Below, in pieces: positions 1,029 through 1,202 of a stretch of 5,278 nt of DNA; within the stretch, counting starts at the first letter, position 1; the number at the start of each line of letters is the position of its first letter. Made by a program: the position numbers and the translations under genes. The stretch spans positions 1 to 5,278 of IMG/VR virus record IMGVR_UViG_2778261227_000018. One strand, written 5' to 3'. The stretch is from a virus (lineage: Duplodnaviria; Heunggongvirae; Uroviricota; Caudoviricetes). Under the pieces are notes generated by a model that did no database searches, had not been told where the DNA came from, and worked only from the letters and a program-made list of their open reading frames with translations.

Positions 1029-1202
1029 ATGGAAGATCAAAAAGCAACCAAGCCACAGGTTAAGTTCGACACAATGAAAGCATTCGTAGGTATGGGTGCT
1101 GCTGTTGAAGTTCTGATGAAGGCTGCTCCTAATGCGTTCACTCACGCTACTGTCTCTGGTAAAGAGCAGCAGGGTAAGCTTCGTCGTCTCAAAGCAGCAT
1201 GA
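1029..1202 (+). CDS. small hypothetical protein (57 aa)
   Basis: Not in the supplied ORF track (below its apparent length cutoff). ATG 1029-1031 is preceded by GGAG (1019-1022) at a 6-nt spacing. Translation MEDQKATKPQVKFDTMKAFVGMGAAVEVLMKAAPNAFTHATVSGKEQQGKLRRLKAA. Codons are dominated by GGT/GCT/GTT/CGT/CTG. Stop TGA 1200-1202 lies about 20 nt before the terminator hairpin. Confidence 0.45.
   Translation: MEDQKATKPQVKFDTMKAFVGMGAAVEVLMKAAPNAFTHATVSGKEQQGKLRRLKAA

Follow-up and report, generated by a model that had tools for sequence, protein, structure and literature searches.

The small gene and its surroundings

The window, that is, the whole stretch of 5,278 nucleotides analyzed in this study, covers the early-left end of an mEp460-like prophage of the lambdoid type, and its positions 900 to 1300 are 100% identical to Escherichia coli O103 RM8385 and phage Lys8385Vzw. 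In the chromosome, the prophage occupies dusA, and the genes on the + strand (positions 1 to 1202) are located just within the attachment site. The last of them is a short open reading frame, referred to below as ORF57. The features surrounding it are the following.

1..573, + strand: Panacea-domain (SocA/PanA-like) antitoxin gene, first gene of the replacing cassette (Pfam PF13274, E = 2e-19)
570..989, + strand: ORF2, coding for the 139-amino-acid partner of the Panacea protein, a presumed toxin (PHROG 19071; no Pfam match)
~1016: point at which homology between the two classes of loci returns, so that the Shine-Dalgarno site is just within the conserved backbone (upstream comparison of 89 loci and junction mapping between mEp460 and Lys8385Vzw)
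1019-1022, + strand: Shine-Dalgarno motif GGAG, 6 nt 5' of the ATG at 1029 (read from the sequence)
1029..1202, + strand: gene for a small basic protein of 57 amino acids, ORF57 (PHROG 2741; WP_000390073.1)
1203..1220, + strand: 3' untranslated region (UTR) segment TCATAGCTGGTGCTTTTT, whose conservation extends from Escherichia to Franconibacter but not to remote lineages
1221..1250, + strand (stem-loop 1221-1246): Rho-independent terminator with an 11-bp stem, a 4-nt loop, and a T-run, which ends the transcription unit
1250..1558, − strand: convergent PrtN-family excisionase-like gene (Pfam PF11112, E = 4e-23; PHROG 1300, excisionase)

ORF57 extends on the + strand from the ATG at position 1029 to a TGA at 1200-1202 and encodes 57 amino acids. 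As had been predicted from the sequence, the start codon is preceded by a well-spaced GGAG (1019-1022, 6 nt upstream) and the gene stands directly before an intrinsic terminator, whose stem-loop (1221-1246) starts 19 nt past the stop codon. The convergent PrtN-type excisionase gene has its stop codon back-to-back with this terminator, GAAAACCCGCC-TTCA-GGCGGGTTTTT followed by the T-run. Within positions 1190 to 1221, the last ORF57 codons (AAAGCAGCA) can pair with GCTGGTGCTTT of the 3' UTR to form a further hairpin directly before the terminator (z = −2.3). A GC-rich hairpin was found just 3' of every ORF57 family member examined, with a clear T-run except at the Photorhabdus locus L095. Rfam searches of the region yielded no family at the gathering threshold; the best match, to the rnk leader, scored 29.8 bits versus a gathering score of 55, and all sub-threshold matches obtained with a permissive E value were driven by the terminator hairpin.

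The − strand of the window (1250-5278) carries an ordinary early-region gene set, coding for the PrtN-type excisionase, an Rv2179c-like 3'-5' exonuclease, a DUF551 protein, an Ea22-like protein, the product of a 292-amino-acid ORF (3873-4751), and a YfdR-type 5'-deoxynucleotidase. The segment from the exonuclease gene to yfdR is mosaic among related prophages. The PrtN-type gene adjoins ORF57 in E. coli phages only, and the neighbors differ at the loci from other genera (L005-L009 and L091-L098). In the phage genome, attP and the + strand cargo described here separate int from the excisionase gene.

Upstream of ORF57, the product of the first gene is named "Panacea domain-containing protein" in RefSeq, and ORF2 overlaps this gene by 4 nt (ATGA, 570-573). 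The start of ORF2 is placed later in RefSeq (128 amino acids) than in the GenBank phage record (139 amino acids). Homologs of ORF2 with 35 to 53% identity occur in Yersinia, Vibrio, Pseudomonas, Klebsiella, and Helicobacter-associated phages, and those in other phages follow Panacea/DUF4065 genes. No ORF57-like gene was found beside the Panacea gene and ORF2 in Yersinia phage YeP1 or Klebsiella phage ST13-OXA48phi12.5, where the two genes form a complete cassette by themselves. Since the 39-nt gap between ORF2 and ORF57 contains neither a promoter-like site on the + strand nor a terminator, and the first + strand terminator is located after ORF57, the small gene is probably cotranscribed with the cassette, now from the Panacea promoter. 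In the RM8385 chromosome, a truncated 5' fragment of dusA (L001:2744-3102) has the same orientation as the Panacea cassette, which is located about 250 nt downstream of the fragment; host transcription may therefore read through into the cassette and ORF57.

ORF57 had originally been described as unannotated, which does not hold, as hypothetical-protein entries exist in RefSeq (WP_000390073.1), in mEp460 (gp24, YP_007112098.1), and in Lys8385Vzw (Lys8385Vzw_30). The exact protein of the window is present on at least 1000 public contigs, and the product matches PHROG 2741 over its full length (E = 1.1e-34, residues 1 to 57 on a 57-position profile). All public entries (RefSeq, mEp460, and PHROG 2741) carry the label of unknown function. 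Searches with the 57-amino-acid protein against Pfam and NCBIfam gave no match at E ≤ 0.1, PADLOC holds no model for it or for the GNAT-like partner described below, and a PDB profile search with the family returned nothing meaningful. A suspected resemblance of the ORF57 core GMGAAVEVLMKAAPNAF to the C-terminal domain of ribosomal protein L7/L12 was dropped, as this PDB search did not support it. A full-text search of papers for ORF57 tryptic peptides and accession numbers gave no match. As a hypothetical phage protein, ORF57 is thus on record, and finding it at a prophage moron hotspot is nothing unusual. The new points are that it belongs to a conserved module of a GNAT-like and a small protein, that the window copy is an orphan created by cassette exchange, and that its tail is degron-like.

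Coding capacity and conservation of ORF57

The length of 57 codons alone is within chance expectation, because the window contains 58 ORFs of at least 30 amino acids. ORF57 nevertheless stands above chance because it is conserved. An intact 57-codon ORF with an ATG start was found at 89 of 89 loci, which had been fetched by an ORF-family query, and the pooled dN/dS was 0.23 in the ORF57 frame versus 1.73 and 1.35 in the two shifted frames. Against other genera, dN/dS ranged from 0.16 to 0.26, and variable sites were distributed over codon positions 1, 2, and 3 as 15, 13, and 30. Positions 1029 to 1202 are hence a real small-protein gene of the translated type under purifying selection. Conservation of the reading frame across homologs, which had been proposed as a check, was borne out by the selection seen in this frame (0.23 versus 1.35 to 1.73 in the shifted ones). 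The pattern that had been named as speaking against a gene, frameshifts within a conserved nucleotide sequence, was absent from the 89 intact loci, although rare frameshifted alleles do exist.

We found 48 homologs with 63 to 98% identity, and an exhaustive profile search for the family recovered only 13 clusters, all of 54 to 77 amino acids except one spurious match to a repetitive protein of 939 amino acids. Family members are 54 to 61 amino acids long and occur in Enterobacterales prophages. In an alignment of 23 sequences, reaching down to 36% identity, the length is fixed and the core invariant. The conserved core, FDTxKAFxGMGAAVEVLMKAAPNAF, corresponds to one amphipathic helix and is preceded by a variable, Lys-rich N terminus. 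Common to the clusters of the profile search are FDTxxAFxxMGAAV[DE]xLxKAAPxxF, an E-x-Q-G-[KR] segment, and a basic tail that nearly always ends with Ala-Ala. In the E-x-Q-G-K segment, Gly is invariant and is followed by Lys or Arg in all family members but one. The tail has the consensus RRRKAA (RRLKAA in the window, due to R54L), and the C-terminal Ala-Ala is present in 19 of the 23 aligned sequences; of the other four, P0050 and the Photorhabdus homolog end with -VA, and P0035 and P0045 do not have the tail. Most of the remote lineages keep the terminal Ala-Ala, encoded by differing codons and followed by an unrelated 3' UTR (the Photorhabdus homolog with its -VA end excepted), so that the tail is conserved as protein and not as RNA.

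The codon usage of ORF57 was found to be of the high-expression style that had been predicted. Calculated with the weights of the Sharp and Li table, the codon adaptation index (CAI) of ORF57 is 0.537, versus 0.199 to 0.311 in the remaining nine real genes of the window. Synonymous recodings drawn from the codon usage of the neighbors reached this value in only 0.14% of cases. The overlapping ORF of 75 amino acids at 850-1077 has a CAI of 0.117, is read in a different frame, and covers the 3' end of ORF2, for which reasons it is probably spurious.

The product contains 10 Ala and 8 Lys among its 57 residues and has a pI of 10.0. Its highest Kyte-Doolittle mean over 19 residues is only 1.13, too low for a membrane-spanning segment. 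An AlphaFold2 model based on a 20-sequence alignment shows one helix (residues 15 to 32) flanked by disordered tails, with a pLDDT of 64; the pLDDT of the C-terminal tail is below 50, and this tail is therefore taken to be disordered. Composition, modeled helix, and hydropathy together agree with the expectation of an Ala/Lys-rich, helical product that does not span the membrane. The allele in the window carries two derived changes, A20V and R54L.

The GNAT-like partner gene and the cassette exchange

When the upstream regions were compared, the E. coli loci fell into two classes whose similarity reaches back no farther than about 13 nt from the ORF57 ATG. In the class to which the window does not belong, a gene for a GNAT-fold protein of about 180 amino acids (mEp460 gp23, PHROG 4350) is located 93 to 193 nt upstream of the small gene. 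The GNAT-like gene is found upstream in mEp460 and in Enterobacter, Pseudescherichia, Franconibacter, Photorhabdus, Edwardsiella, and metagenomic lineages. A search with the GNAT profile added 80 further loci, and at all 80 the small gene follows on the same strand, at a stop-to-stop distance of 353 to 371 nt. Among the loci examined, none had the GNAT-like gene without the small gene. The small gene without the GNAT gene, on the other hand, was present at 61 of 89 loci, and ORF2 accounts for the match in about 205 of 566 E. coli records.

The native module consists of the GNAT-like gene, a spacer of 93 to 193 nt, the small gene with its own Shine-Dalgarno motif, and a GC-rich, terminator-like hairpin, which, with the exception of Photorhabdus, is clearly an intrinsic terminator in every lineage examined. 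It was found next to int/att, before holin/lysis genes, and within a tail-gene block. Because these positions in the prophages are quite different, the pair behaves as a mobile two-gene moron. In all 8 lineages compared, the small gene has a higher CAI than its GNAT partner, with a difference of about twofold in Enterobacteriaceae. No Pfam model, those for acetyltransferases included, matches the GNAT-like protein, and its acetyl-CoA loop is non-canonical; its best structural matches include TacT3 and AtaT. It is a divergent, acetyltransferase-like protein with a GNAT fold and with putative activity and toxicity. Engineered HIV gp41 constructs that came up as PDB sequence matches of the GNAT-like protein were discarded as artefacts of Gly-rich linkers and coiled-coil composition.

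The native spacer of mEp460 (L002:2818-3013, aligned with L005-L009 and L041), which is absent from the window, contains the palindromes ACCAATCG-N6-CGATTGGT and TTACC-N5-GGTAA, and a GAGAC-N6-9-GTCTC hairpin abuts the Shine-Dalgarno motif. These blocks are conserved across genera and were recovered by RNAalifold with almost no covariation. They may serve as operators or form a structured leader.

A direct comparison of mEp460 with Lys8385Vzw located the boundaries of the exchange. The two phages are 97% identical from int through the att side; then an 803-bp segment of mEp460 (promoter, GNAT gene, and spacer) stands opposite a non-homologous segment of 1208 bp in Lys8385Vzw (promoter, Panacea gene, and ORF2), and identity returns at 98% exactly 13 nt before the ATG of ORF57 (window position ~1016). 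In the window lineage, which is mEp460-like and resides in dusA, the Panacea gene and ORF2 have thus replaced the GNAT gene together with its promoter and spacer. ORF57 is therefore an orphan, the surviving half of a displaced module and now the last cistron before the terminator. An exchange of like for like was considered and rejected, as the GNAT-like protein shows no similarity to the Panacea protein or to the ORF2 product.

Differences among closely related E. coli alleles point to changed selection after the exchange. The partner-less class shows 9 nonsynonymous and 3 synonymous changes versus 3 and 9 in the GNAT-linked class (Fisher's exact test, P = 0.039), a contrast that rests on 24 mutations in phylogenetically non-independent loci. 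The nonsynonymous changes of the orphan class (V11L, V11I, A20T, A20V, L29M, K50E, R54L, A56V, and A57V) hit the otherwise conserved residues L29, K50, A56, and A57, whereas those of the GNAT-linked class all fall at variable positions. Frameshifted or truncated alleles occur sporadically in the protein database, mostly with the MED N terminus typical of the orphan class. One complete genome with the window allele, that of E. coli F2_407_2_2 (NZ_CP074756.1, L181:1330-1503), has a single-G deletion in ATGGGT (codons 22 and 23), and the frameshifted small ORF was left unannotated by RefSeq; either a true pseudogene or an error in sequencing would explain this. The data suggest that the constraint on ORF57 has been relaxed since the loss of its partner, a reading that we treat as suggestive, given the small sample and the non-independence of the loci.

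Possible function and relation to known systems

The comparisons above show a real, conserved gene that is natively the second one of a GNAT moron and is orphaned in the window. As to its mechanism, we tentatively propose that the product is an abundant, labile binding partner of the GNAT protein. The small protein would most likely act as a neutralizer (antitoxin-like) or as a pseudosubstrate and acetyl acceptor. The central amphipathic helix with its many small residues (GMGAAVEVL) would dock on the GNAT enzyme, the invariant G-K and the basic tail would reach its active site, and the C terminus, EQQGKLRRRKAA-COOH, would act as a ClpX-type degron that renders the protein short-lived. The strong ribosome binding site and a codon usage about twofold better adapted than that of the partner would supply the small protein in stoichiometric excess. 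Labile antitoxins and pseudosubstrate inhibitors are typically built this way. The window copy, being without the GNAT gene, would have no cognate target; at most it might cross-neutralize GNAT modules of co-resident or incoming prophages, and otherwise it would be drifting.

Several observations speak for such a partnership. The coupling is one-directional, with the GNAT gene never alone and the small gene tolerated alone; the CAI of the small gene is the higher one in 8 of 8 lineages, combined with a strong Shine-Dalgarno motif; the product has a single amphipathic helix rich in small residues between disordered segments; its invariant Gly, with Lys or Arg next to it in all family members but one, stands in a basic context; its C terminus resembles ClpX degrons; and constraint appears relaxed in the class without the GNAT gene (9:3 versus 3:9, P = 0.039, with 24 mutations from non-independent loci). 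On the other hand, the hallmarks of known GNAT toxin-antitoxin (TA) systems are absent, since there is no RHH/DUF1778 domain and the small gene is located downstream. The 93- to 193-nt spacer and the palindromes conserved in it point to separate regulation, the GNAT-like protein is without a Pfam match and has a non-canonical acetyl-CoA loop, and the intact orphan allele on at least 1000 contigs fits a stand-alone usefulness equally well as a recent swap. A far-reaching version of the GNAT-partner interpretation, which we regard as improbable, takes ORF57 and the GNAT gene as an undescribed two-gene prophage system for TA/abortive infection or anti-defence. In it, the small protein would be a highly expressed, labile neutralizer or acetyl acceptor with a degron tail, and the orphan in the window would be a stand-alone "anti-addiction" antidote against the GNAT modules of competing prophages.

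An independent small protein, one of the options originally considered, is supported in that ORF57 is a real coding gene with a strong ribosome binding site and high-expression codons, whose product is helical and not membrane-spanning. In its specific form, the protein would have a function of its own in the lysogen, for example as a host-directed modulator or regulator. Linkage to the GNAT gene would then reflect no more than co-inheritance within a moron, and the window would have retained ORF57 because it is useful by itself. We consider this main rival rather unlikely. ORF57 has its own Shine-Dalgarno motif and terminator as well as a very high CAI, the palindromic blocks of the 93- to 193-nt spacer could be the control region of the small gene itself, and the backbone kept the small gene when the upstream cassette was exchanged, with the window allele intact on at least 1000 contigs. 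However, outside the E. coli swap class the coupling to the GNAT gene is 100%, at a fixed distance and in very different prophage positions, and the excess of nonsynonymous changes and frameshifts is found precisely in the class that lost the GNAT gene. The reverse assignment of roles, in which the small basic protein is harmful, the GNAT protein detoxifies it by acetylation, and the window copy is an attenuated toxin, is very unlikely. The small size, the basic character, and the amphipathic helix of the protein would suit a toxin, its G-K could be the acetyl acceptor, and the orphan class has many nonsynonymous changes, A20V and R54L among them, along with some frameshifts. Yet an intact gene with a strong ribosome binding site and a CAI of 0.54 is found on at least 1000 contigs without the GNAT gene, where an unguarded toxin would vanish quickly; moreover, such high codon adaptation is unusual for a toxin, and the hydrophobicity is too low for a membrane-damaging peptide.

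The original prediction had also offered ORF57 as a third component (regulator, adaptor, or chaperone) of the upstream cassette, here the TA cassette of the Panacea gene and ORF2. Its position would be compatible with this: it lies on the same strand 39 nt past ORF2, no promoter-like site or terminator intervenes, and a single terminator follows. This option is nonetheless largely refuted and can hardly be maintained, as the cassettes of YeP1 and of Klebsiella phage ST13-OXA48phi12.5 have no ORF57-family gene, the family otherwise always accompanies a GNAT-like gene, its native partner, and the cassette junction falls between ORF2 and the Shine-Dalgarno motif of ORF57. With the junction 13 nt before the ATG and complete two-gene cassettes elsewhere, ORF57 is not a component of the Panacea cassette, and their relation is one of physical linkage and not of functional membership. 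Least credible of all is that the region acts mainly as RNA, be it a 3'-UTR-derived or a terminator-proximal sRNA, with the ORF being incidental. The 3' UTR (1203-1220) and the terminator are indeed conserved from Escherichia to Franconibacter, the end of the coding sequence can fold with the 3' UTR (z = −2.3), and an RNA, sRNA-17, has been reported from mEp460-like prophages (PMC7719688). Opposed to this are the dN/dS of 0.23 in frame versus values above 1 out of frame, the remote homologs that keep the protein including its terminal AA with other codons and do not keep the 3' UTR, and the lack of any Rfam family at the gathering score. In E. coli K1, sRNA-17 is 193 nt long and stems from an mEp460-like prophage, and its "intergenic" region was defined after deleting hypothetical-gene annotations (PMC7719688). 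Overlap of this sRNA with coding sequence is therefore conceivable. As a candidate for the ORF57 locus it was rejected, because primer and sequence data place it at another locus, which is absent from the window and 3 to 4 kb away in 20 related loci. In these (L028, L029, L031, L032, and 16 more), sRNA-17 maps to the early region, 3 to 4 kb beyond the small ORF.

The tail of ORF57 can be compared with known ClpX degrons, for which two C-terminal motifs have been described, C-motif 1 of the ssrA tag (...LAA) and C-motif 2 of MuA (...EQNRRKKAI, tag CILEQNRRKKAI) (PMC12723719). The tail resembles both in its motif only. Like ClpXP substrates with C-terminal degrons (PMC12723719), ORF57 has a disordered, basic tail with an Ala-Ala end (EQQGKLRRRKAA) that is conserved at the protein level; unlike them, the window copy carries R54L, P0035 and P0045 are without the tail, and P0050 and the Photorhabdus homolog end with -VA.

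With regard to PanA cassettes (PMC8832971), the two genes at the start of the window fit well, with a Panacea domain (E = 2e-19) and an overlapping partner, and ORF57 is probably on the same transcript. In contrast, the ORF57 family was not found with Panacea genes elsewhere, and ORF57 is on the backbone side of the swap junction. For tests of the Panacea system, this means that ORF57 is not a required third gene, even though it is probably cotranscribed.

Morons of lambdoid phages are autonomous units of promoter, gene, and terminator, such as bor and lom of lambda or pid of P22 (PMC3573128). The ORF57 unit is similarly compact, has its own ribosome binding site and terminator, and occupies several prophage positions, whereas the window copy is without its native upstream half. 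To our knowledge, no lysogenic-conversion phenotype of the ORF57 unit has been reported. The moron of a GNAT-fold protein and a basic protein of 54 to 61 amino acids is a conserved, uncharacterized element that occurs at classic moron positions in prophages of many Enterobacterales genera.

A close parallel to the native pair is provided by GNAT/RHH (DUF1778) type II TA systems (AtaT-AtaR, TacT-TacA, KacT-KacA, and ItaT-ItaR), in which mobile elements of Enterobacterales likewise encode a GNAT-fold protein of about 175 to 180 amino acids beside a small partner. For toxin binding, a short segment from the C terminus of these antitoxins suffices (titles of PDB entries 6gtr and 7ak9), which is comparable to the single helix of ORF57. 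In contrast to the known antitoxins, ORF57 has no RHH/DUF1778 domain, as judged from no Pfam match, one helix, and no PDB sequence match. Its gene is located downstream at a distance of 93 to 193 nt and not upstream or overlapping, the GNAT-like partner has no Pfam acetyltransferase match, and the window itself has no GNAT gene. The architecture of the GNAT-like gene and ORF57 would thus be unlike that of any known GNAT/RHH system. Should the pair turn out to act in TA, defence, or anti-defence, the window would illustrate how orphan partners arise in nature when cassettes are exchanged at prophage hotspots, and the pair would add a GNAT architecture that works without an RHH antitoxin.
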